Part shown: positions 4,673 to 40,417 of the stretch, in pieces
How the letters are laid out: every line of letters starts with the position of its first letter
Position numbering within the stretch: the first letter of the stretch is position 1
Notes under the pieces: model-generated
Seen by the model: only the letters and a program-made list of their open reading frames with translations
Told to the model about the DNA's origin: nothing
The model's database searches: none
Sequence record: NC_100129.1
Length of the DNA stretch: 50,984 nt
Direction: 5' to 3' (one strand)
Source: a phage
Program-made: the position numbers and the translations under genes

Positions 4673-6256
4673 ATGAATTTTTCATTTGAAACAAGTCAGT
4701 TATCACCGAAACAAATCATTGAAACCGCCGAATCTCAAGGTATTTCCCCTGTTCGTGTATCCATTCAGGCCAACGGATACCGCCAATCGTCAAGCTATTG
4801 GGGACAGGTGGAAGATATTAACGGCGGTAACGACCGCTACCCTGTCATTTCACTTGGGAATGATGTTGATGTAGTTGGTAAGCTGGCGCGCAATCTTGCG
4901 AGATCTGTTCAATTCCCTGAATCATCGGCCTACATGCACTTTATCGGATGTATTTCTGCCGCTATGCTTGGTCGATTCACAGTTGACTACCACGGAACCG
5001 ATCAGCCGACCGCGCTTTACGTTGTGACAAGCCAGCCTCCGTCGGCAGGTAAATCCGCGATTAACAGTCTGGCTATTGCGCCTATGGTTGCAGAAGTTGA
5101 GCGCATCAACGAGCAACGCAAGAAGGAACGGAAAAAGATACAGGCAAAACTTGCCGGACTACTAAAGGAGATGAAAAGCGAACGCTCCGGCGCAGATATG
5201 GAGATTCTATATCAAGAAAAAGAAGATCTGGAAGAAAAACTAAGCAAACTTTGCGATGTTGTTTTCCCTGTCTCCGACACCACACCAGAGGGATTAGCAA
5301 AGATAAATAACAGACAAGGAAACTTCGCGGTTATTTCTGATGAAGCAACCAGTATTAACAGTCTGCTTGGCCTGACTTACGCGAATAGCGAGCGCAAAAC
5401 TAACAGCGAACTTGTGTTAAAAGCATGGGATCACGGCCATGTTTCTATCGCCCGTTCTAATGCAGACAATAACATGAGTTTTTTTGCGCTTGGATGTATG
5501 AGTGTTATCGCCCAGGATGAAACTATTAATGGCATCATGGATGCAGGATCTCGTGGCATCGGTGTAAGCGAGCGTTTTCTACTGGTGCGCGAACAGCCGT
5601 TAATCGGTACGCGTGTATTTGTTGATGAGAATGGTGATTCAACTTACGAACCAGTAGACGGTGAATTGAAAGCGCAATACTTTCAGTTGGTGCATAACAT
5701 TATGAGCGAAATTAACGTTTCTCTGAAAGTTAGCCGTTCTGCAATGCGCGTGCTGAACATTGCACGCCAGGATATGGAACCGCATCTTGCCGACGGCGGA
5801 AAGTTTTCGCATACGATGCTACGCGGTGCGCTGGGTAAAATGGATAAGCAGGTGATCCGCATTGCTGCCGTTCTGCATGTGATACGCAATTGGTTTAATC
5901 CTGCTGGATACCCGCAAAAGTCTAGAGAGATTGACGTTGACACGATGCAAGAAGCCTTGCTGATGTTCCATGAATTGAGCAAAACGTATATCAGCGCGGC
6001 GAACGCGTCCGGCTATGCTGGTGATGATGCCGAGATGTCAAAACTGATTGAGTTAATCACCCGCCACGGTAAGGCAAATAAAGGCGTATTGAATGTCCGC
6101 GCTTTGTATGAGGCAGCACGCAAGGTAAAACCTTTCCTGGGGCAAGCTGGCGTGATGAAGCGCATAGAATCGCAACTTCTTCCGATGCTTGAGCAAAAAA
6201 ACTACGTTTGTGTTATTAATGGTGTTATTTTTGTGAATCCTGTGTTAATGGGGTAA
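4673..6256 (+). CDS. putative P-loop NTPase, replication-associated (527 aa)
   Basis: Deviant Walker A SQPPSAGKS and Walker B-like AVISDEA; large early gene; family assignment uncertain. Confidence 0.45.
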   Translation: MNFSFETSQLSPKQIIETAESQGISPVRVSIQANGYRQSSSYWGQVEDINGGNDRYPVISLGNDVDVVGKLARNLARSVQFPESSAYMHFIGCISAAMLGRFTVDYHGTDQPTALYVVTSQPPSAGKSAINSLAIAPMVAEVERINEQRKKERKKIQAKLAGLLKEMKSERSGADMEILYQEKEDLEEKLSKLCDVVFPVSDTTPEGLAKINNRQGNFAVISDEATSINSLLGLTYANSERKTNSELVLKAWDHGHVSIARSNADNNMSFFALGCMSVIAQDETINGIMDAGSRGIGVSERFLLVREQPLIGTRVFVDENGDSTYEPVDGELKAQYFQLVHNIMSEINVSLKVSRSAMRVLNIARQDMEPHLADGGKFSHTMLRGALGKMDKQVIRIAAVLHVIRNWFNPAGYPQKSREIDVDTMQEALLMFHELSKTYISAANASGYAGDDAEMSKLIELITRHGKANKGVLNVRALYEAARKVKPFLGQAGVMKRIESQLLPMLEQKNYVCVINGVIFVNPVLMG

Positions 6257-10147: not shown

Positions 10148-10167
10148 GTTTTAACAAAAAGTGCTAT
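10148..10167 (-). promoter_or_regulatory. dyad motif copy (reverse orientation)
   Basis: Minus strand reads ATAGCACTTTTTGTTAAAAC, then hairpin, CATAAT, TCATCGAAACGA, RBS, ATG of 9912-10097 gene. Confidence 0.6.
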
Positions 10168-15274: not shown

Positions 15275-15291
15275 TTAGCAAAAAGTGCTAT
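15275..15291 (-). promoter_or_regulatory. dyad motif copy, variant (TTAGCAAAAAGTGCTAT)
   Basis: About 12 nt upstream of RBS of tail fibre gene, after primase terminator. Confidence 0.5.
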
Positions 15292-19500: not shown

Positions 19501-20562
19501 TTAAATCAGATACTGCTTGAACTGTCGGCGCACAAATTCAGGCGTATCCAAGCAAACTTCCGGCTCACCGTTTGCATACGCAGGCCATACGTCATGATGC
19601 TGGCACATAGCAAACTGTTGGATCACGCTAACATACTGGACTCGGCCTATCTTCAATTGCTCGCTGTTCATGCGGAAAGCCAACGGCAAATAAGGCTCTT
19701 TCTTCTCCTGGGCTAACAGGCGCATAACTACAGGGCGCTTCTCGTCTGGATATGCCTTCCTGAATAAATCATGTTGCAGCGCCATTTTCAGATAATAGCC
19801 GTGGTTGTAAGCCAGTCGCATAAACTCCATCGGATTTGCGCTCATTGTGGTTTTGTAGTCAGTTATAACAACCGCTTCTGGATAGATAATATCGCGGCAA
19901 ATTGGCTGACCTTTTTCGTCATAACCATCAATTAGCGTGGCGGTGACGTTTTTCACTACGTCAACGTGATCACATCGAACTTTAACTTTTACGCCGTTGA
20001 TTTCGCCGAATAACGACAATTCACGCTGTGCCGTCGGGCTGTTCATGCAGGCGTTATGTTCCGGTATGGATTCCAGAACCTGGCGCATTGCCACGCAAGC
20101 ATCGTAATCTTTCGCGTCGATTAACTGTACGCCGTCGGCTCTGGCCTGGCTTTCTGCGATCATGTCGATTAACCACATGATGTTAAGGTCTTCGCCACAA
20201 TCAACCATCATTTTGATAAGGTCGGGGTAAGCCTTTCCGCTTGTCCCTTTCAGGCCAAAAGATTTCAGCTTTGCAGCCAATGCCGTTTGGCTTGTGATCA
20301 ACTCTTTGAAGTCTTCCGGCGCTGGCGCACGGCGGTAAGTTTTATCAAATAGCTCCTTGCTTTCGAAGTTGGTATGCGACTGCGTACCGAAAACGAGCGC
20401 CTTGCTCTTATCGTCGCGCGGCTTGAACTTCCACGCAGCAGGGCAAGTGCTGTAAATCTCTGCCAGACTTGAACCGCTAACATATTCAGCCGTCCATGCT
20501 TCTGGATCGTGATAAAGCTCGTTGCTCATTTCTGCGCTGGTGTAAGCCATAAATTTATTCAT
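19501..20562 (-). CDS. PD-(D/E)XK recombination exonuclease (RecE/YqaJ-like)
   Basis: VITDYKTT motif; first gene of exonuclease-Erf-SSB module. Confidence 0.65.
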   Translation of the reverse strand: MNKFMAYTSAEMSNELYHDPEAWTAEYVSGSSLAEIYSTCPAAWKFKPRDDKSKALVFGTQSHTNFESKELFDKTYRRAPAPEDFKELITSQTALAAKLKSFGLKGTSGKAYPDLIKMMVDCGEDLNIMWLIDMIAESQARADGVQLIDAKDYDACVAMRQVLESIPEHNACMNSPTAQRELSLFGEINGVKVKVRCDHVDVVKNVTATLIDGYDEKGQPICRDIIYPEAVVITDYKTTMSANPMEFMRLAYNHGYYLKMALQHDLFRKAYPDEKRPVVMRLLAQEKKEPYLPLAFRMNSEQLKIGRVQYVSVIQQFAMCQHHDVWPAYANGEPEVCLDTPEFVRRQFKQYLI

Positions 20563-21073
20563 GATTAGCCCTCATTGGTTGGTATGCCTTCATTTTAGCT
20601 ATTTGATGCGTTTAGTCAATAGGTGATTTGTTTTTTCTGTTTTCTAAACGCTTCTTTTGGGCTTAAGAACAAAATCTGATTATAAGTGATTGAATATCAG
20701 GTTGTTATTTTTCTGTTCTCGCGTTCGCGTATCTGCTCAGCTTTATACATACATATGCAATACCCAGTGAGCATCTGTAATTACATAAATCAATACACTC
20801 ACCAAACATGCTACACACCACAACCCAATGAAACACAGAGAACAAATAAAAACAAATATAGATACATAGATAAATAAACTCTTTATTTTTTATGTATATA
20901 GATGATTTTACTGTCTATTGTTTGTCCAATTTGTGTTTAAGTTTTGCGCTAAAATTAAGGAGGTGTGAATTTGATAACAAGCGAGAACAGAAAAAACAAA
21001 TAGCACTTTTTGCTAAACTCGATGTTCAAGATCTTGTATAGTTGGAAACAACAACAACTAAGGAGATACAAAG
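20563..21073. other. large non-coding divergent control region (candidate ori/regulatory)
   Basis: ~510 bp without credible ORF; G-poor A/C-rich top strand; GTTCGCG repeat and AT-rich palindromic element ACATAGATAAATAAACTCTTTATTTT. Confidence 0.6.
21000..21017 (+). promoter_or_regulatory. dyad motif copy, variant (ATAGCACTTTTTGCTAAA)
   Basis: Upstream of lipoprotein cassette; TATAGT ~25 nt downstream. Confidence 0.55.
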
Positions 21074-21343
21074 ATGAAAAAATTAATCGCAGTTATCGCC
21101 ACCGTAGCCGCTCTGACCGGATGCGCAGCGTCGCCTACTGGCAGCTTCAAAAAGATCGATTGCACGGCAAAATTTAACGTTAAAACATTCCCTGTTAACG
21201 GATTCCATGAAGTCAAAATTAATGCAGTACGCGAAAACAGATTCAGCCAAAAGCAATACAGGTTGAGCGTTGACAATAAAGAAGTTAAATTTATCAACCG
21301 CTGGCAAAATGAAAGTAAATTTATTGATTTGAGGTGTAATTAA
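21074..21343 (+). CDS. small outer-membrane lipoprotein, candidate Cor-like superinfection-exclusion protein
   Basis: Signal peptide plus lipobox LTGC; 89 aa; own upstream dyad motif; position next to J-like gene. Confidence 0.5.
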   Translation: MKKLIAVIATVAALTGCAASPTGSFKKIDCTAKFNVKTFPVNGFHEVKINAVRENRFSQKQYRLSVDNKEVKFINRWQNESKFIDLRCN

Positions 21344-21621
21344 TGGCGCAATATGGTTATGCAATATATGACGATCGAGGAAGGGAAGTTACAGGACTTT
21401 TAACGCCTGTTTTCTTTCTTGATAAATTCACTCAGCCATCAGGTAGCAAGACTTACCAAAACAGGCCGCCAGGTAAATCATTGAAAGCAATATATGTTGG
21501 CATGAATTCCTGGCGTGGTGGCGACCCTGGCGCACCAAACTTATCGGTAAGTGGCGACACCGTTACATGGAGTGGGCTTTCTGGATCTGATTCAAGATAT
21601 ATATATACTTTTTGGGGGTGA
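21343..21621 (+). CDS. hypothetical protein (92 aa), paralog-motif family
   Basis: Shares N-terminal motif YG-x-x-I-x-x-x-x-G with the next ORF; translationally coupled. Confidence 0.45.
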   Translation: MAQYGYAIYDDRGREVTGLLTPVFFLDKFTQPSGSKTYQNRPPGKSLKAIYVGMNSWRGGDPGAPNLSVSGDTVTWSGLSGSDSRYIYTFWG

Positions 21622-22238
21622 TGATGTACGGGATGAGCATAAAAAAATCAGACGGATCATTATGGTTAAGCCCAGATTTCACTCCGGTTAATCTAATTGA
21701 TCGGGCAGTTATATCTGCTAATACCGGAACAGTTTTTACTTCGTCAATTCCTATTGATAGGGTGTGTTTTTTCTTTGTTAGATTGACTGCTAAATCATAC
21801 ATATCATTTACGCAATTTAACAATGGAGGAAGACACGCAATAAGACTTGATAGATCTGATAATCAGGGGGATGTTATTGTTTATGCTTTTAGCAACATGG
21901 TTACGCCTCCTGGTAGTCACGGGATAGCATTTTATAATGCTAGTGGTGAAATGGTTTATCATGGAAAAATGAGGCCTTTGGATGCAAAACTTGTATCTGT
22001 AAGCGGGATCGCGTTTGATGTTAATTTGGGATACCCTTGCGCCATAATGCCATCACTGACAGCGTTAAACTCTGTTCCTAATCCGGCTTTAGGTGGATTC
22101 ATGATATTTGAATCTCAGGCTGCTGCGTATGGCAACGGTGTATATTCTTTCTCTAGGCAAGTTGCACAAACTCCTGGCCCAGTTGGTATTTACACCGCTT
22201 CATCTGTTTTGGTTATAAATACATCACACTATGATTAA
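21612..22238 (+). CDS. hypothetical protein (~205 aa), paralog-motif family
   Basis: Contains motif twice (YGMSIKKSDGS, HGIAFYNASGEMV); followed by bidirectional terminator. Confidence 0.5.
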   Translation: MGVMMYGMSIKKSDGSLWLSPDFTPVNLIDRAVISANTGTVFTSSIPIDRVCFFFVRLTAKSYISFTQFNNGGRHAIRLDRSDNQGDVIVYAFSNMVTPPGSHGIAFYNASGEMVYHGKMRPLDAKLVSVSGIAFDVNLGYPCAIMPSLTALNSVPNPALGGFMIFESQAAAYGNGVYSFSRQVAQTPGPVGIYTASSVLVINTSHYD

Positions 22239-22242
22239 AATT

Positions 22243-22266
22243 AAAGGGGGCTATGCCCCCTTTTTT
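22243..22266. terminator. bidirectional terminator between plus-strand cassette and J-like gene
   Basis: GGGGGCTATGCCCCC then TTTTTT; A-rich upstream. Confidence 0.8.
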
Positions 22267-25200
22267 ACCAGCTTCCGGTAATCCTTCCGACTTCAACCCT
22301 CAATACTCCGTTTGCATCTTTTACCTTCAATCCCTCATTGGTGAATTTAGTAGCTCCTTCTCCTGGCGTTGATCCGTAATTCTCAAAGATTCCGTTTTTA
22401 TCAAGCCTCCATCCTTGCTGGTTTTGAACAAAGTTGTTTGACTGAATAACATTACCAATCATCGCATTAGTGATTGATCCGTTCTTCACCAAAAGACTAT
22501 TAATGAAAACCTGATTATTCTCAACCACGAAAGGCAAAGTGAAAGTCCCTCCAGTAGAGCTAGTCATAATGGCGAACCTGTTAGCATCAAACAAAATTTG
22601 CGAGATAAGGCCGGATGAACCCTGCGAAAGCTGCATCACCATTCCTGCGCTGTACTTCTGCCCATTGTAAGTAAGACCCAATTTCATAGCGTACTTAGCG
22701 CCAACTGAATCAACGCTCGCCCAAGAATCCAACTTTTCAACCAATGCAGATTCAACGTCTCCAAATCGTGCTGTTAATGCCTGATCAGCTTGTACTCGTG
22801 CTTCCTCCTCGTTGGCGATAGCTTGTCTCACTTCGGAAATGCTGGCCTCAACGTCAACCTTGATTGCATCATTGAGATCATTAATCTCTTTGGTGAATTT
22901 TGCATCAAGCTGTTGTACCGCTTGCGCTCGCGCTTCTGACTCGTTAGTGATTGTCTGCCTTACATCGCTAATGCTTGCAGAAGTATCCTTGCGCACGCCG
23001 TCGATTTCTTTCGTGAATTTAGAATCAAGCTGCTGAATTTGAGTTGCTCGTGTCTCTGATTCAGTGGCGATTGCCTCCTGAACTGTCTTGATGCTTGATG
23101 TTATCTCGCCATCAATTGAAGCCCTCAATTCTTCGATTTGAGTTACTCGCGCCTCAGTCTCATTTGCGATCAACTGAACAGCATGACCATATTCAGCCTT
23201 TCGCTTTCCGTTCTGTACTCGCGTCCATTTCAAGTTAGCGTCAATCGCCAAAGCGTTCTGGATTATTGCCTGCGCCTGGTCTTTGATCTTGTTCGCGCTT
23301 TCGATGGCGTTCTCCTTGATTTCTTGCCCTGCTTCGCTATCAAAAATCTTATCAAGAATATCTCCTAAAACAGATTCAACATCATCTGATGCCATGCCAC
23401 GAACAAAATCAGTCCAGCTAGAAACGTTGCCGATTCTGTCAACGCTGCGGATTCTATACCAGACAACCTGACCCGCTGGTAGTGTACTGTGCCAGTATTC
23501 ATATTGCGGGTATGGGATCAGCGTTAACAGGCTTGAGTTTTCAACCGTTCCGTCTGGCGACTGGTGAAGCTCAATGTAGGCCGTGTCTCCGCTTCCTTCT
23601 GGCATGCCCCATTTAATACGAATGCCGAAAACTTCATTATCTGATGCGGTTAAGTTAACTGGCGCGCCTGGCTCGCCAACTTTACCAGTCAGGGAAGCTG
23701 TTGCAATCTTCGACCATGCTGATGTACTGCCGGAAGCTGAAACAGATCTGACCCTTACTTGATAGTTCCCTGAATAAATTCCTTCTACTTCCGTCTCTTT
23801 GTTCGCTGTGCGCGGCGTATTTAGCCAGTTGCCATCACCTTTTCGCCATTGCATTTCATACAGTGACGCATAAGGCACTTTATCCCACGACACAACCATC
23901 GTCTCAACGCTAACACCCTGGACAACACGGGAGTATGATGACACCTGAACATTTTCCGGTGCTTGCATGATGTCCGGCTGCACGATTGAGATCGGACGAT
24001 CATCAATGTTTACGCCATAATCAATTTCGTCGTATTTGTTAGGATCGTATTCAACCGCCGTAATCGAGTAGGTAAATTCTTCCTCAGTGTCACCCTTGCT
24101 GATTCCTGTTACAACGTACTGTTGCAACGCAAGGTCTGTTCGGTCGATTGCAAATACGGTGTCCGGTTTTACGTCGAATCCGAACCCTACGTTTAACTCA
24201 ATGGTTTTTCCGTCCGCGCTGACTTTTGAGATTGTGCGCTTAACTGGTTTTCCGTCCGGTCTGTTGATGATAATGAAATCACCTGGTCTAGCGTCAATCT
24301 TAAACGGAACGAATACCTGCAAGCCGGAAACTTCCATTACGCGCCCTGATAGGTTGAGCGTTAAGTTGCTGCTCAGGAAGTTATCAGAAATCGCGATAAC
24401 GTCACCGATAGATGGGATCATCCCTTCCAGCCCGGTGGCAAAGTTTACCGTTTGGCTGCGCAGGTTGGTTTTCAGTATCCAGCGTCCGCGTCGATTCGCT
24501 TCGCTTCGACGGGTACAACCAATCGCCGTGATACTTGTTGGATTGTAGCCAAAACGTAACGCCGCCTCAGTGTCAAATACGCCCTCAACGTCCTGTTGAT
24601 ACATGTTTTGCTCATCGTCAAACGTAACGTTGCATTGAGTGTACATGCTCTTTTCGCTGGCGCTCGTGTACTGAAAATCTCCATTAATTACGTTGTCGTT
24701 TGTAAAGATGTATGATGGCTCGCGCGGTTTATCCACCACTACAGACAAGCTCTCGCCATTCCAAAAAGTCATTCCTCGGAAGATTGAGCAAATGTCACGA
24801 ATAAGCTGATAAGCCTCAATCTGGCTTTGAATCACCATATCGCATAGGTAGCGCGGCTCTGTTCCTCCCTTGCCATCTGGAACCATCTGATCACAATACA
24901 CCCCAGCCTCGTATAGACTCCACTTGTCGATCTGTATTCCCAATTCTCGTTGATCAAGTCCATAACGCTGATTAGTAACCAAATCGTAAAGAACCCATGC
25001 CGGATTATTTGACCACGCTTTTTTAAATGTTCCGTCCCATGTTCCAGAATACCGACGAGATACAGGATCGTAATTGCTGGGAACCTGAATCAACTTCCAT
25101 TTCTTTTTAATTGAAATGTTAGGGATCTGGTTAGGGAACAGTTCACTGTCAAACTCGACGTAAACAAGCCCAGTCAGAGGGTAACGGAATTTTGCATCAA

Positions 25201-25843
25201 TTACCTCGGCGTAACTCTGTATGCGGATCAGGTCTGTAACCTTCGACGTTGTGCTGTCAGGCGTAACGCGGCGAACGCGAAGCAAAACACGCTCATTGAA
25301 TTTCGGCAAGTCAATGCGTCGGCTACGGTCGTATCCGGTGCGCGTCTTGCCGTTAATGGTGTCGATCATTACTTCTTTGTATGAATCACCATCAACCGCC
25401 ATATCAACTGCATATGTAACGGTAACGCCCACCAAGTCGCCGTTATCCTCCTGCTTAATACCCACTGGCATTAGCATTTTGATGCGTATTGCGGAAAGCG
25501 TCTTATTCGTTACCGACAAAACATATGGCGTATTTGTAGTCAAATCTCGATTGATGATCACCTCGTTTGACGTGTCAGTAAAACCCTGAATGTATTCCTG
25601 ATCCTGCGTTCCTGGCCTAAACTCTGCTTTAACGCCTGGGTAGTTTACAGTTCCGTCGTCAGCGATAACCGGAACATCATCAAGATACAGATCACGTAAT
25701 GAGAAATCCGCGTCACACTCACCATCGGATACGGCAAGCAGGATTTTAATTTTGTTTATTGAAATCAGGTTATCTTCAAGCTCTTTAGGCACGTAAGGTT
25801 TTTTCGACCCACCCTTACTGCCAGTTATAATATTTTTAGCCAT
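22265..25843 (-). CDS. central tail fibre / host specificity protein (lambda gpJ-like)
   Basis: 1192 aa; blocks recalled from lambda J (LQVPSNYNP..YSG.WDGTFK, CDQ.VPDG.GGTEPR); last gene of tail module. Confidence 0.9.
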   Translation of the reverse strand: MAKNIITGSKGGSKKPYVPKELEDNLISINKIKILLAVSDGECDADFSLRDLYLDDVPVIADDGTVNYPGVKAEFRPGTQDQEYIQGFTDTSNEVIINRDLTTNTPYVLSVTNKTLSAIRIKMLMPVGIKQEDNGDLVGVTVTYAVDMAVDGDSYKEVMIDTINGKTRTGYDRSRRIDLPKFNERVLLRVRRVTPDSTTSKVTDLIRIQSYAEVIDAKFRYPLTGLVYVEFDSELFPNQIPNISIKKKWKLIQVPSNYDPVSRRYSGTWDGTFKKAWSNNPAWVLYDLVTNQRYGLDQRELGIQIDKWSLYEAGVYCDQMVPDGKGGTEPRYLCDMVIQSQIEAYQLIRDICSIFRGMTFWNGESLSVVVDKPREPSYIFTNDNVINGDFQYTSASEKSMYTQCNVTFDDEQNMYQQDVEGVFDTEAALRFGYNPTSITAIGCTRRSEANRRGRWILKTNLRSQTVNFATGLEGMIPSIGDVIAISDNFLSSNLTLNLSGRVMEVSGLQVFVPFKIDARPGDFIIINRPDGKPVKRTISKVSADGKTIELNVGFGFDVKPDTVFAIDRTDLALQQYVVTGISKGDTEEEFTYSITAVEYDPNKYDEIDYGVNIDDRPISIVQPDIMQAPENVQVSSYSRVVQGVSVETMVVSWDKVPYASLYEMQWRKGDGNWLNTPRTANKETEVEGIYSGNYQVRVRSVSASGSTSAWSKIATASLTGKVGEPGAPVNLTASDNEVFGIRIKWGMPEGSGDTAYIELHQSPDGTVENSSLLTLIPYPQYEYWHSTLPAGQVVWYRIRSVDRIGNVSSWTDFVRGMASDDVESVLGDILDKIFDSEAGQEIKENAIESANKIKDQAQAIIQNALAIDANLKWTRVQNGKRKAEYGHAVQLIANETEARVTQIEELRASIDGEITSSIKTVQEAIATESETRATQIQQLDSKFTKEIDGVRKDTSASISDVRQTITNESEARAQAVQQLDAKFTKEINDLNDAIKVDVEASISEVRQAIANEEEARVQADQALTARFGDVESALVEKLDSWASVDSVGAKYAMKLGLTYNGQKYSAGMVMQLSQGSSGLISQILFDANRFAIMTSSTGGTFTLPFVVENNQVFINSLLVKNGSITNAMIGNVIQSNNFVQNQQGWRLDKNGIFENYGSTPGEGATKFTNEGLKVKDANGVLRVEVGRITGSW

Positions 25844-28411: not shown

Positions 28412-31342
28412 TTAGCCTCGCTTGCTCATAACAAATTCGTAAACTTCGCCGCCCTGCGTACAGGAACGTTTAATCATATCGGTGAAAATCATCTTAACGC
28501 CAGTTTCTATACCTTTCGGATCGCTACCGTTGTTAATATCAACGCTAATACCGCCGATATTGAATTGCGCCGCGCCAGCATTGATGCCACCGCCGCTATA
28601 GCTGGAACCACCAACCACGCCGCCGTTAGCATAACCGCGCATCAACTTGTAAAGGTTGCCGACTCCGATCCGCTTCGTTGCCTCCTTCGTCATGACAAAT
28701 TCACCCTTGTGAACCACTCCAGCCGCTTCATATTTCCCGCCGTCGCCAGTGTAACCGCCATCAGAGAAGCCGCGAGGACGGAATGACGGAACGGGGAATG
28801 ACTGACCAGATCCGCCGCCAGTTTTAGGACTTCCGCTAACCCATCCCATCGCTGCCTGAATTGCGTAGGCAATACTCAACTGCGTAATGATGTTCATAAT
28901 CATTTTGATGATTGAAGATGCGAAGTCTTTAAAACTGCTTTTTCCTGTGCTCAATAGCTCCACAAACTGATCGCTGATTCCGTTTAATGCGTTGGTCATT
29001 ACGTTACCAAATTGACCGCCCAAATCCATAGCCGAATCAATCCAGTTTTTCGTAGAGCGTTCAATCCCTGCGATTGAGTTCATGCTCAACTCATCTTGCA
29101 TTGCGTAGACTTCGTTGATCTTATCAATCATCTCGGCGAGTCTTGCATCAGTAAGCTGACCGCCTTTTGCCAGCCAGTCAGTGACGATGCGTTGCCGTTC
29201 AAGCTCCCTTTGCGTCTCTCGGTCGCTCATGCCTTTTTGCTGTAGCTCAAGCGATTGAAGCGTTTCCTTTTGACGATGCAAGAATTTAATTGATGTATCC
29301 TGCAACTGGATCTGGTCGCCAAGTATAGCCCGCTGCTCTGCCAGCGAAAGGATCTTATCCTTGTTGGCAATAATGCTTTTTTCTTCGTCAGTAAGCTGGC
29401 GTTTCTGTGATGCTTCCTGCAAGACCTGGATTTTTGCTTGCTCAGTCCATAACGCCCGGCGCTGCTGGCTGATTGATGCAATGACAGTTTCGTGCTCCTT
29501 CAATACTCGCAATTGAGTCTCCAGTGCAACAATGTCTCGCTGATACTGATCCTCAATCCTGTCTCCAGCCGACACTTTGACCTTTTGAGAACGTGCTTTG
29601 TCACGCTTCGCCAGTTCTTCGGCCTCTTTCCTGATTGCTTCGCGCGTCTTCTCTGAATACTGCTGCTCTGTCGCCGCGCGTTCACGCATCATTTCAATGT
29701 AACCCATCTCGCCCTTTCTGACTCGCGCGTCGCGTTCTTCGATGGACTTCGCCAGTTCTTCGTTTTCCTTCTTGCTCTTGTCGATGATTTCCTGCTGCTG
29801 CTTGATAAATTCATCGCCAACACCGCTAAGTCCTGGGATGTTCTGCATCGCTTTAGTGGCAGAAATAACAAACTCACCGATCAGAATATCACCCTGATTA
29901 AGCAAGTAGCGAACCTGCTCAACCGTTGCCGCCACAACGTCAGTGATCAGGTTAAGCGCACCAATTGTGTGATCGCCTACCCATCCCCAGGCGTCAGAAG
30001 CCCACTTGCGCACGTCGTCCCACATCTTTTCTAACGGCGTTGCCGAATCGGCAAGGTTGGCAAGGCGTTGCTCCATTACATCGGCGAATAGCTCGGTCGC
30101 CCGTGTTACTGCCGCAGTTTTGCCGCTGGTTTTTTCAAGGTCGGCGATATAGGTTAGCTGTCCTTGTTTCAGGAAGTTAAATTCTTCGTTTAGCTTAGCC
30201 AGACCTTTGACCGGATCATCAGCAATCTTGTTAAAGTATTCCGTAATCTTTCCGCTTGATTCGCCCGTTACCGCTGACCATTGCGCAGTCGTTTTGGTGA
30301 TTGCCCTGATTTGGGTAATCGTAAACTTACCGGATCTTGCAAGCTCGGTTGCAATGTTGCGGATACTTCCAATCGTTGCATTCGTGCTACTGTTGATGTC
30401 CTGCGCCATCTTTTCGAATTGCGCCGCGTTAGTTCCGGCATAACCTCCAGTCAGGACTAACGCCTCATGCAAGTTTCGTTGCGAAGAGTAGGAATCATAA
30501 CCCGCTTTCACCAAAGCACCCAGGGAAACAACAAGCGCACCAACGCCAACATTTACCGGATTAAGGTACGACAACAACGCTTTGAACGTGTTAGAGATTC
30601 CACCGAATGAATCCTTAATCTGCCCGCCCTGCTGGATTGCAACCAACCATACAGGCATACCAGAAGCAAGCGAAGTGACAACATCAGTGATCTGCGCCGG
30701 AAGCATTCTCATAGCCTGCCGATATTGTCCCATTGAGATGCCTAATTTTTGGGCTTGCTTATCCTGCGCTTTCATCTGCGAGATAAATGGCGCTGCCTCA
30801 GCACTTACCCCTAGTTGTGCGGCGCGAATCTCCAGCAATTCCTCTCTGGTTTTCCCTGCTGCCTCAGCTTGCTGTTGCAATGCAGAGATGAATTTACGCG
30901 CCTCAGCCTCTGCACGGGCTTTCTGTTTCGCTTCCTCTGCCGCTGCTCGGCCTTCTTCGGTTAATGCTTTCTTTGTGGCGATCAGCTTATTCTGCTGCGT
31001 TTCCAAGATAGCGCCAAGCTCAAAGAAAGTATCATCAGGCACTACGCCTTTTTTCCAAAGGGAATCAAGCTGTGATGCCGCTTGTCGCAACTTATCCATT
31101 TTTGCCGCTGTCGGATCAATGGAGTCCTGAATTTTTCTAAACTCCGCTCGCTGCCTGCGCAATTCCTCGGCAAGCTGTTTAGCCTGCTGTCGTGCGATTG
31201 CCTCAGTATCAACGAATCCCTCGACGCTGCTCTTTGCGTCGTCGTTGGCCTTCTTGAACTGCTGCAATGATTTAACAGCATTCGTGACCTGCGACACGTC
31301 AACGCCAAGTGTTAAGCCTGCGTATTTATCAGCCATGTTCAT
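28412..31342 (-). CDS. tail tape measure protein
   Basis: 976 aa, long coiled-coil-rich, Gly-rich C-terminus, downstream of G/G-T chaperone. Confidence 0.85.
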   Translation of the reverse strand: MNMADKYAGLTLGVDVSQVTNAVKSLQQFKKANDDAKSSVEGFVDTEAIARQQAKQLAEELRRQRAEFRKIQDSIDPTAAKMDKLRQAASQLDSLWKKGVVPDDTFFELGAILETQQNKLIATKKALTEEGRAAAEEAKQKARAEAEARKFISALQQQAEAAGKTREELLEIRAAQLGVSAEAAPFISQMKAQDKQAQKLGISMGQYRQAMRMLPAQITDVVTSLASGMPVWLVAIQQGGQIKDSFGGISNTFKALLSYLNPVNVGVGALVVSLGALVKAGYDSYSSQRNLHEALVLTGGYAGTNAAQFEKMAQDINSSTNATIGSIRNIATELARSGKFTITQIRAITKTTAQWSAVTGESSGKITEYFNKIADDPVKGLAKLNEEFNFLKQGQLTYIADLEKTSGKTAAVTRATELFADVMEQRLANLADSATPLEKMWDDVRKWASDAWGWVGDHTIGALNLITDVVAATVEQVRYLLNQGDILIGEFVISATKAMQNIPGLSGVGDEFIKQQQEIIDKSKKENEELAKSIEERDARVRKGEMGYIEMMRERAATEQQYSEKTREAIRKEAEELAKRDKARSQKVKVSAGDRIEDQYQRDIVALETQLRVLKEHETVIASISQQRRALWTEQAKIQVLQEASQKRQLTDEEKSIIANKDKILSLAEQRAILGDQIQLQDTSIKFLHRQKETLQSLELQQKGMSDRETQRELERQRIVTDWLAKGGQLTDARLAEMIDKINEVYAMQDELSMNSIAGIERSTKNWIDSAMDLGGQFGNVMTNALNGISDQFVELLSTGKSSFKDFASSIIKMIMNIITQLSIAYAIQAAMGWVSGSPKTGGGSGQSFPVPSFRPRGFSDGGYTGDGGKYEAAGVVHKGEFVMTKEATKRIGVGNLYKLMRGYANGGVVGGSSYSGGGINAGAAQFNIGGISVDINNGSDPKGIETGVKMIFTDMIKRSCTQGGEVYEFVMSKRG

Positions 31343-40399: not shown

Positions 40400-40417
40400 T
40401 TTAGCAATTCGTGCTAT
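40400..40417 (-). promoter_or_regulatory. dyad motif copy, palindromic variant (ATAGCACGAATTGCTAAA)
   Basis: Overlaps stop TAG of terminase large subunit; followed on minus strand by TATAAT, terminator hairpin and portal RBS. Confidence 0.55.

Follow-up and report, generated by a model that had tools for sequence, protein, structure and literature searches.

What is the role of three small genes that lie together between the recombination and tail genes of a phage, the first encoding a lipoprotein and the other two proteins with a shared sequence motif? We addressed this question in a stretch of phage DNA of 50,984 nucleotides (sequence record NC_100129.1; hereafter, the window), for which it had originally been suggested that the trio could form a superinfection-exclusion or receptor-modulation module, by analogy with the Cor lipoprotein that blocks the FhuA receptor.

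An operon convergent with the J-like tail fibre gene

The three plus-strand open reading frames were confirmed with the predicted coordinates and lengths, namely g1 (21074-21343, 89 aa), encoding a lipoprotein with the lipobox LTGC; g2 (21343-21621, 92 aa), encoding a small beta-sandwich protein of phrog_557; and g3 (21624-22238, 204 aa), the BtuB-type allele of an all-beta protein of phrog_425. Translation of g3 could also begin at 21621 (ATG, in frame) or at 21612 (TTG). As read from the sequence, the gene junctions overlap (TAATG at g1/g2 and TGATG at g2/g3), and these stop/start overlaps therefore make g1-g2-g3 one coupled operon, preceded by the sequence AAGGAG as the ribosome-binding site of g1 (21060-21065, plus strand).

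On one side, the cassette is convergent with a J-like central tail fibre gene (22265-25843, minus strand; 1192 aa), whose product ends in a C-terminal Phage_Tail_Tip domain. Folding placed a bidirectional intrinsic-terminator hairpin, common to the cassette and the J gene, at 22243-22263 on both strands, that is, between the two stop codons; its GC-rich stem of 9 bp has a folding energy of ~-15 kcal/mol on each strand and is bordered by T-runs on either side. Both the convergent arrangement and the shared terminator thus stand as originally described. On the recombination side lies the exonuclease VIII gene (19501-20562, minus strand), divergent from the cassette and separated from it by a 510-bp spacer. 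The small ORFs that others have annotated in this spacer were weighed and judged unsupported, and an Rfam search of 20400-22400 gave no match. The trio had been described as inserted between the recombination and tail modules; the position is right, with exonuclease VIII and J as flanking genes, but the cassette is not an insertion: it is the conserved, hypervariable locus that all relatives carry downstream of gpJ.

Upstream of g1, the plus strand holds a perfect dyad TAGCA-N5-TGCTA (TAGCACTTTTTGCTA, 21001-21015) that recurs genome-wide. With one mismatch at most, 19 copies were found in the window against 1.5 expected, most of them preceding both a -10-like hexamer and the start of a gene, so that the dyad-motif element predicted for the cassette near position 21000 is indeed one of a series. 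The T1 genome carries 7 exact copies. A -10-like hexamer TATAGT (21037-21042, plus strand) follows 21 nt downstream of the dyad, a spacing that recurs at other copies (usually about 22 nt); since a simple sigma-70 scan called no plus-strand promoter at the cassette, this hexamer is one that we infer. Nothing relevant to the dyad sequence was found in the literature. We take the recurring motif to be a regulatory or promoter-associated one.

The window phage almost certainly uses BtuB

The window belongs to a Warwickvirus-type phage of the Drexlerviridae. Over a 1.7-kb region, its DNA is 99.9% identical to that of phage BEBK14 and 97.8% to that of MatMar (Drexlerviridae, Tempevirinae, Warwickvirus), and the same arrangement occurs in about 65 further records. 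The cassette lies directly downstream of gpJ with the recombination module beyond it, which is the position of the locus for the receptor-binding protein (RBP) and superinfection exclusion (SE) in Drexlerviridae. This hypervariable locus has been termed the 'bona fide RBP locus', its alleles matching the terminal receptor (Maffei et al. 2021, PMC8594841). Furthermore, g3 exceeds 30% identity at full coverage to the RBPs of BtuB phages, reaching 96% to that of JK16 and 63% to that of KarlJaspers.

In a preprint that screened 255 coliphages genome-wide by RB-TnSeq (10.64898/2026.04.02.716166), btuB dependence was reported for MatMar (CPL00168), JK16, FritzSarasin (Bas04) and KarlJaspers (Bas06). 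The MatMar RBP is listed there as CDS_0022, which in GenBank numbering is the 204-aa gene adjoining J; this assignment was made by comparative genomics and AlphaFold3 (ipTM 0.74 for the RBP with BtuB), not by binding assays (10.64898/2026.04.02.716166). Because these near-identical phages need btuB, BtuB, the vitamin B12 transporter of E. coli, is the receptor to be expected here as well. Going by sequence relationship, the receptor of the window phage is almost certainly BtuB and not FhuA, the originally proposed candidate, which yields to the MatMar identity and the btuB screens.

g3 is most likely the terminal receptor-binding protein

The g3 product matched phrog_425 over its full length (residues 1-204, E 7.7e-50), a family that also takes in T1 gp31 (9e-68) and phi24B gp54 (4e-81) and to which N15 gp23 belongs. 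Neither a Pfam scan at E <= 1 nor an NCBIfam scan gave a match to g3, and PDB sequence searches with g1, g2, g3 and the g3 profile returned nothing relevant. Structure prediction, which had been suggested for the two motif proteins, rendered g3 as an all-beta protein (AlphaFold2, 18 homologues; pLDDT 89.9, pTM 0.84) that is uncertain in its first 20 residues only, and g2 as a monomer with moderate confidence only. The g3 model shares its fold with the LptD-binding RBP that has been solved (DUF6453 type; PDB 9rpt). By Pfam score, neither g2 nor g3 belongs to DUF6453 (PF20051), which Rtp44 itself hits at 1.4e-113. At the profile level, HHalign aligned g3 residues 78-123 with Rtp44 residues 186-233 (47 columns, E 2.4e-4) in the register that the protein lengths predict. 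As far as the literature shows, a fold common to g3 and the solved LptD-binding RBP, as the model predicts it, is new, these families having previously been called unrelated or devoid of structural relatives.

Conservation within the g3 family is seen at the N-terminus, between the modules and in the C-terminal tail; the variable stretch is residues 121-192. A conserved N-terminus and a variable stretch of this kind are what would be expected of a docking end and a receptor-contacting end. In a Foldseek comparison with viral models, phage proteins of ~95 aa matched a stretch of ~95 residues within g3 (probability 1.0), which suggests that small partners resembling, in their models, a single g3 module are common among phages.

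Work on homologues points the same way. The g3 homologue gp54 of phi24B was detected in the virion proteome at low estimated abundance, extra density was seen at the needle tip, and BamA is bound there, in the authors' proposal, by a heterodimer of gp54 and gp55 (PMC12309495; bioRxiv 10.64898/2026.04.10.717836). AF2-Multimer caps the J trimer with a 'hand-like' protein of the g3 family, and a low membrane affinity was calculated for the family (Matusiak et al.); neither g2 nor g3 has a signal peptide or a hydrophobic or membrane segment. We conclude that g3, a soluble protein, is most likely the terminal RBP, of the BtuB type. Membership in phrog_425 and phrog_557, the modelled RBP fold of g3 and the presence of gp54 in virions thus place g2 and g3 in structural (virion) families, the very outcome of profile searches that the original prediction had named as counting against its exclusion reading of the pair.

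A hairpin motif recurs in g2 and g3

The YG...G motif reported to be shared by g2 and g3 and to recur inside g3 is real in all three copies. One opens g2 (YGYAIYDDRGREV; 21352-21390, plus strand; residues 4-16) as an N-terminal hairpin of low pLDDT in the monomer model; a second opens g3 (YGMSIKKSDGSLW; 21627-21665, plus strand; residues 2-14), where it lies within the most conserved stretch of the family and reaches pLDDT 64-69; and the third, internal hairpin (HGIAFYNASGEMV; 21918-21956, plus strand; g3 residues 99-111) opens the second g3 module. Counterparts of the motif stand at the start of T1 gp32, of the two modules of T1 gp31, of the two phi24B proteins and of every third of Rtp44, and the J proteins of the window phage, T1, RTP and L007 end in a similar hairpin, as does the phi24B needle protein.

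The two proteins had also been called paralogous. This is borne out in part. A profile comparison of the g2 N-terminus with the internal g3 copy gave an E-value of about 6e-4. Over the whole proteins, paralogy is far less evident: BLASTP of g2 against g3 was not significant (E 1.7), and HHalign aligned g2 in register with the N-terminal half of g3 over 40 columns (E 0.029). In a 140-sequence set, a few members of the g3 family matched the g2 profile over their first ~55 residues (E 1e-3 to 1e-5). On these alignments, common ancestry of the g2 and g3 modules is plausible. An ancient triplication was also considered and set aside: module-wise HHalign comparisons of g2, the g3 halves and the Rtp44 thirds were mostly in register but too weak as proof.

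g2 as the putative first chain of a two-chain protein

The g2 product matched phrog_557 over its full length (residues 3-92, E 1.6e-20), together with T1 gp32 (2e-31) and a phi24B ORF of 92 aa (2e-35) that is annotated too short, as 75 aa; N15 gp22 is of the same family. Scans of Pfam (E <= 1) and NCBIfam gave no match to g2. In T1, phi24B, KarlJaspers and the window, g2 lies beside g3 in each case, and its sequence changes less from allele to allele than does the variable part of g3.

A HMMER search of 1.8 billion representative sequences with the g3 profile retrieved 142 proteins, among them a group of 307-325 aa in which the g3-like part begins at residue ~95-110 (E down to 5e-15). When the g2 profile was run on the 140-sequence set, which had been picked without reference to g2, it matched residues 1-83 of these fused proteins (P0176, 5e-8; P0163, 4e-7; P0147, 9e-6), and phrog_557 followed by phrog_425 was found with PHROGs in all five fused proteins tested. 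One fusion is encoded directly after a J gene, and next comes a convergent gene for a lipoprotein that matches the Cor PHROG phrog_1119 (1.5e-8). The lengths also fit, with 92 + 204 = 296 aa for the separate proteins and 309-325 aa for the single-chain ones. As far as the literature shows, the fusion of the g2 and g3 families is a new observation. Since the ~315-aa fused proteins are not DUF6453 by Pfam, the link to the LptD-type family is one of fold and a short profile match; HHalign found no significant similarity between g2 and the first module of Rtp44 (E 0.059). As seen in the complex of the Oekolampad RBP with its receptor, the part nearest the tail is poorly ordered and the contacts are made by C-terminal residues (bioRxiv 10.1101/2025.07.07.663478).

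Because both proteins occur fused, in the order g2-g3, in ~315-aa proteins of the same locus, we read g2 and g3 as a two-chain RBP, with g2 probably as its detached first, tail-proximal chain. Alternatively, g3 alone could be the RBP docked on the J trimer, with g2 serving as a non-virion, Tfa-like assembly chaperone of g3 or of the J tip. This would fit the phi24B virion proteome, in which gp54 was found and the g2 homologue gp55 was not (PMC12309495; bioRxiv 10.64898/2026.04.10.717836), the preference of others' AF2-Multimer models for a 'hand-like' monomer capping J and the mediocre confidence of the g2 monomer. However, proteomics easily misses small, low-copy proteins, stable fusions in the g2-g3 order exist with no sign of a cleavage module, and the LptD-type single-chain RBPs, equal in total length, keep their N-terminal module when mature, which makes a chaperone unlikely. 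A good deal less probable still is that g2 is a second recognition element, trimeric and Ig-like in the manner of the lambda J C-terminal receptor-binding domain, that joins g3 in binding BtuB or some secondary structure on the cell surface: the combined models of Matusiak et al. favoured capping by the large protein, g2 varies less among alleles than the variable part of g3, and the fusions point to a single g2 module for each g3 and not to a trimer.

g1 is probably an exclusion factor beside the tail-tip genes

The lipoprotein is as predicted, with a signal peptide MKKLIAVIATVAALTG|C, the lipobox LTGC and, in the mature protein, an alanine at +2 that predicts sorting to the outer membrane. 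Two more cysteines, at residues 30 and 88, align with those of T1 Cor and of the L007 lipoprotein, the first shortly behind the lipid-bearing cysteine and the second close to the C-terminus, so that g1 presents itself as a small outer-membrane lipoprotein at a J/RBP locus with the cysteine pattern of Cor. With its signal peptide, g1 matched the Cor PHROG phrog_1119 at E 1e-7, a match that was gone once the signal peptide was removed, and against the NCBIfam Cor model NF047972 it scored 18.6 bits (E 0.0014), short of the cut-off of 31 bits. On both counts, g1 is not a demonstrable member of the Cor family. Candidacy as a spanin or lysis lipoprotein was rejected as well, the matches being at the level of the signal peptide only and the genomic context wrong.

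As mature g1 has no Cor match and 18.6 bits lie below 31, it is position and analogy that speak for an exclusion role. The gene occupies the place of the SE lipoprotein Rtp45 in phage RTP, where the lipoprotein is likewise followed by the RBP and both are convergent with J, and g1 is co-inherited with BtuB-type g2/g3 in 91 phage records; others have remarked that Cor-like genes accompany BtuB-type phages. Rtp45 is a solved, structurally proven SE factor that acts on LptD (bioRxiv 10.1101/2025.07.07.663478), and Llp on FhuA is a proven case of exclusion. By analogy, g1 is probably a superinfection-exclusion factor acting on BtuB.

Of the exclusion or receptor-modulation module originally envisaged, the lipoprotein part is therefore retained, as the SE factor expected beside tail-tip genes, and the g2/g3 part is not, the two proteins being of RBP/virion families and lacking signal peptides and transmembrane segments. 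That the entire cassette is such a module, with g2 and g3 as membrane-associated helpers of the lipoprotein in masking or altering the receptor, is scarcely credible: co-transcription with g1 in the window and the KanT1 paper (2026), which found no structural matches for the T1 homologues and assumed a Sie-related role, are outweighed by the absence of hydrophobic segments and the low calculated membrane affinity, by the RBP fold of g3 and the occurrence of its homologue gp54 in virions, by co-transcription of the T1 pair and the L007 fusion with J and not with cor, by locus alleles that track receptor use, and by labels that go back to old similarity notes and not to experiments.

Proposed working of the cassette

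Taken together, the cassette is very probably the BtuB-type allele of a receptor-specificity locus that follows gpJ in Drexlerviridae and in small siphophages related to them, in which g3 and g2 form a two-chain RBP and g1 is the exclusion factor. A single transcript, started at the upstream element of the cassette and running towards J, would cover all three genes. The g2 and g3 proteins would assemble into a heterodimer, presumably with 1:1 stoichiometry, equivalent to the single-chain RBPs of ~315 aa and docked in the order J-g2-g3, with the C-terminal Phage_Tail_Tip domain of J as the presumed docking site. The variable C-terminal module of g3 would then contact the extracellular face of BtuB, the surface involved being a predicted one. 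On its part, g1 would be exported, receive its lipid anchor and reach the outer membrane, in whose inner leaflet it would sit, and might bind BtuB from the periplasmic side, thereby blocking both incoming phages that use the same receptor and the adsorption of progeny to cell debris. We liken this putative activity, and its target, to the action of Llp on FhuA and of Rtp45 on LptD.

Such a locus sets the outer-membrane receptor, and with it host range, the resistance mutations that arise and the mutual exclusion of phages in cocktails. Reading the cassette as a BtuB-type RBP with its exclusion factor, as opposed to a FhuA/Cor moron, also changes the experiments to be done. The g2/g3 fusions and the link of g3 to a solved fold are a small but useful addition for annotation and for receptor re-engineering.

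Comparison with known systems

One parallel is T5 pb5/Llp, which resembles the proposed system in having a straight fibre tipped by a monomeric RBP and a periplasm-facing outer-membrane lipoprotein that inactivates the same TonB-dependent transporter; it differs in genomic location, and neither sequence nor detected fold relates the window proteins to pb5. In phi24B, a homologous pair of 92 + 205 aa, with g3 45% identical, is encoded right after a protein with a C-terminal Phage_Tail_Tip domain, as in J. By contrast, phi24B is a podovirus with BamA as its probable receptor, its pair is co-directional with the fibre gene, and no lipoprotein gene adjoins it (lom follows).

The LptD-type locus of Rtp45-Rtp44 and Oekolampad (Dunbar et al., bioRxiv 10.1101/2025.07.07.663478; PDB 9rpt) has as RBP a single chain of 309-311 aa (DUF6453, phrog_1265), whereas that of the window is split into 92 + 204 aa; its receptor and its SE lipoprotein are unrelated in sequence to those of the window phage. 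A recent preprint speaks of the tail-tip RBPs for different receptors as 'unrelated families'. We tentatively suggest, with somewhat less than even confidence, that the FhuA-type (T1 gp32+gp31), BtuB-type, phi24B-type (gp55+gp54, probably for BamA) and LptD-type (DUF6453) RBPs form one superfamily of three beta modules of ~100 aa, each opened by an h-x-h-x-[DN]-x-x-G hairpin that also closes J, encoded either as a single chain or by a gene split after module 1, and with hairpins that would chain J, g2 and g3 together. If the hairpins dock in this manner, their low confidence in the monomer models would be explained. Were the superfamily real, module 1 and the hairpins would be a portable adaptor, and specificity could be re-engineered by swapping the last module only.

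In the same place of the genome, between J and the recombination genes, lies the FhuA-type locus of T1, N15, HK022 and phi80 (gp32-gp31-cor; gp22-gp23-cor in N15), which shares phrog_557 and phrog_425, the module-initial motif and a small lipoprotein. The receptor there is the TonB-dependent FhuA, the lipoprotein is a bona fide Cor, and g3 is 26% identical to T1 gp31 over 99 aa only. The orientation differs too: the T1 pair runs in the direction of J, with cor alone on the other strand, whereas in the window all three genes are convergent with J.

The BtuB-type locus of the Drexlerviridae MatMar, JK16, Bas04 and Bas06 has the same genes in the same order and orientation at the same place downstream of gpJ. 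The cassette is accordingly an ordinary, already published BtuB-type receptor-recognition and exclusion locus of a T1-like phage, and the window is a further isolate carrying the MatMar-type allele, with nothing of substance to set it apart.

A recurrent dyad and the cassette-proximal spacer

A 15-nt dyad, TAGCACTTTTTG(T/C)TA, occurs 19 times in the window against 1.5 occurrences expected, with copies at 283, 2002, 3926, 6770, 21001, 32028 and 35781 in plus orientation, at 10152, 11191, 13708, 15276, 44728, 47032, 49411 and 49875 in reverse orientation, and as variants at 40402, 46073 and 48224. AAAAC and a GC hairpin follow most copies; a −10-like (C)ATAAT comes ~22 nt downstream, ahead of a ribosome-binding site and ATG. 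Those at 15276 and 32028 lie in opposite orientation shortly 5' of late-gene ribosome-binding sites, past terminators. Over-long spacing rules out that TTGTTA within the dyad serves as a normal −35 element; the dyad rather resembles a site at which a phage regulator would act, either an operator or an activator site. The T1 genome holds seven exact copies, and a literature search retrieved no description of the dyad.

In the 510-bp spacer that separates the cassette from the exonuclease gene (20563-21073), inverted copies of ATTTGTTTTTTCTGTT(T/C)TC lie at 20626-20644, at 20708-20722 and, in reverse complement, at 20983-21001, where the element abuts the dyad. The full 19-mer has no further copy in the rest of the window. 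The equivalent spacer is annotated as 'repeat_region' in the haarsle record; three small ORFs annotated there by the record of MatMar, a near-identical relative, were unsupported.

Terminal hairpins and the start of phi24B gp55

The last ~20 residues of the J-like central tail fibre and needle proteins form a terminal hairpin outside the Pfam Phage_Tail_Tip domain. Its type is that of the motif opening g2 and each module of g3, the two chains read as a receptor-binding protein. This hairpin is encoded at 22265-22340 on the minus strand of the window (LKVKDANGVLRVEVG), at ~4930-5001 of the record with a g2-g3 fusion beside J (L007; AAWYNASGQVVCSMG), at ~28490-28561 of T1 (L003) and, in the needle protein, at ~5630-5702 of phi24B (L005); it is possibly a docking or strand-exchange element.

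The g2 homologue of phi24B, vb_24B_41 (gp55; HM208303), was deposited as a 75-aa protein. A TTG start 51 nt upstream yields a 92-aa version (5717-5995) with the conserved YGFAIYN motif at its N-terminus and a full-length phrog_557 match, so the deposited start is probably wrong, which may bear on the proteomic search in which gp55 went undetected.

Distant homologues and host factors beyond BtuB

Large phages (~90-100 kb) from other genera encode remote relatives of g3, at 26-28% identity, and of the g1 lipoprotein, at about 29%: Cronobacter phage vB_CsaP_009 (LC519601/NC_048664), Proteus phages 3H10_20 and Privateer, and Salmonella phage SSU5. In vB_CsaP_009 some 32 kb separate the two genes. 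The g1/g3 module thus extends beyond small siphophages, and linkage of its two genes is not obligatory.

In the RB-TnSeq tables of a preprint (bioRxiv 10.64898/2026.04.02.716166), three BtuB-type phages of Warwickvirus and Hanrivervirus, Bas04, Bas06 and CPL00160, selected sdaC and dcrB mutants besides btuB; for MatMar, the passages covered gave btuB alone. SdaC and DcrB are inner-membrane/periplasmic factors with an established role for phage C1/C6 and colicin V. Selection of their mutants points to a DNA-entry requirement after adsorption, which nothing in the g1-g2-g3 cassette explains.
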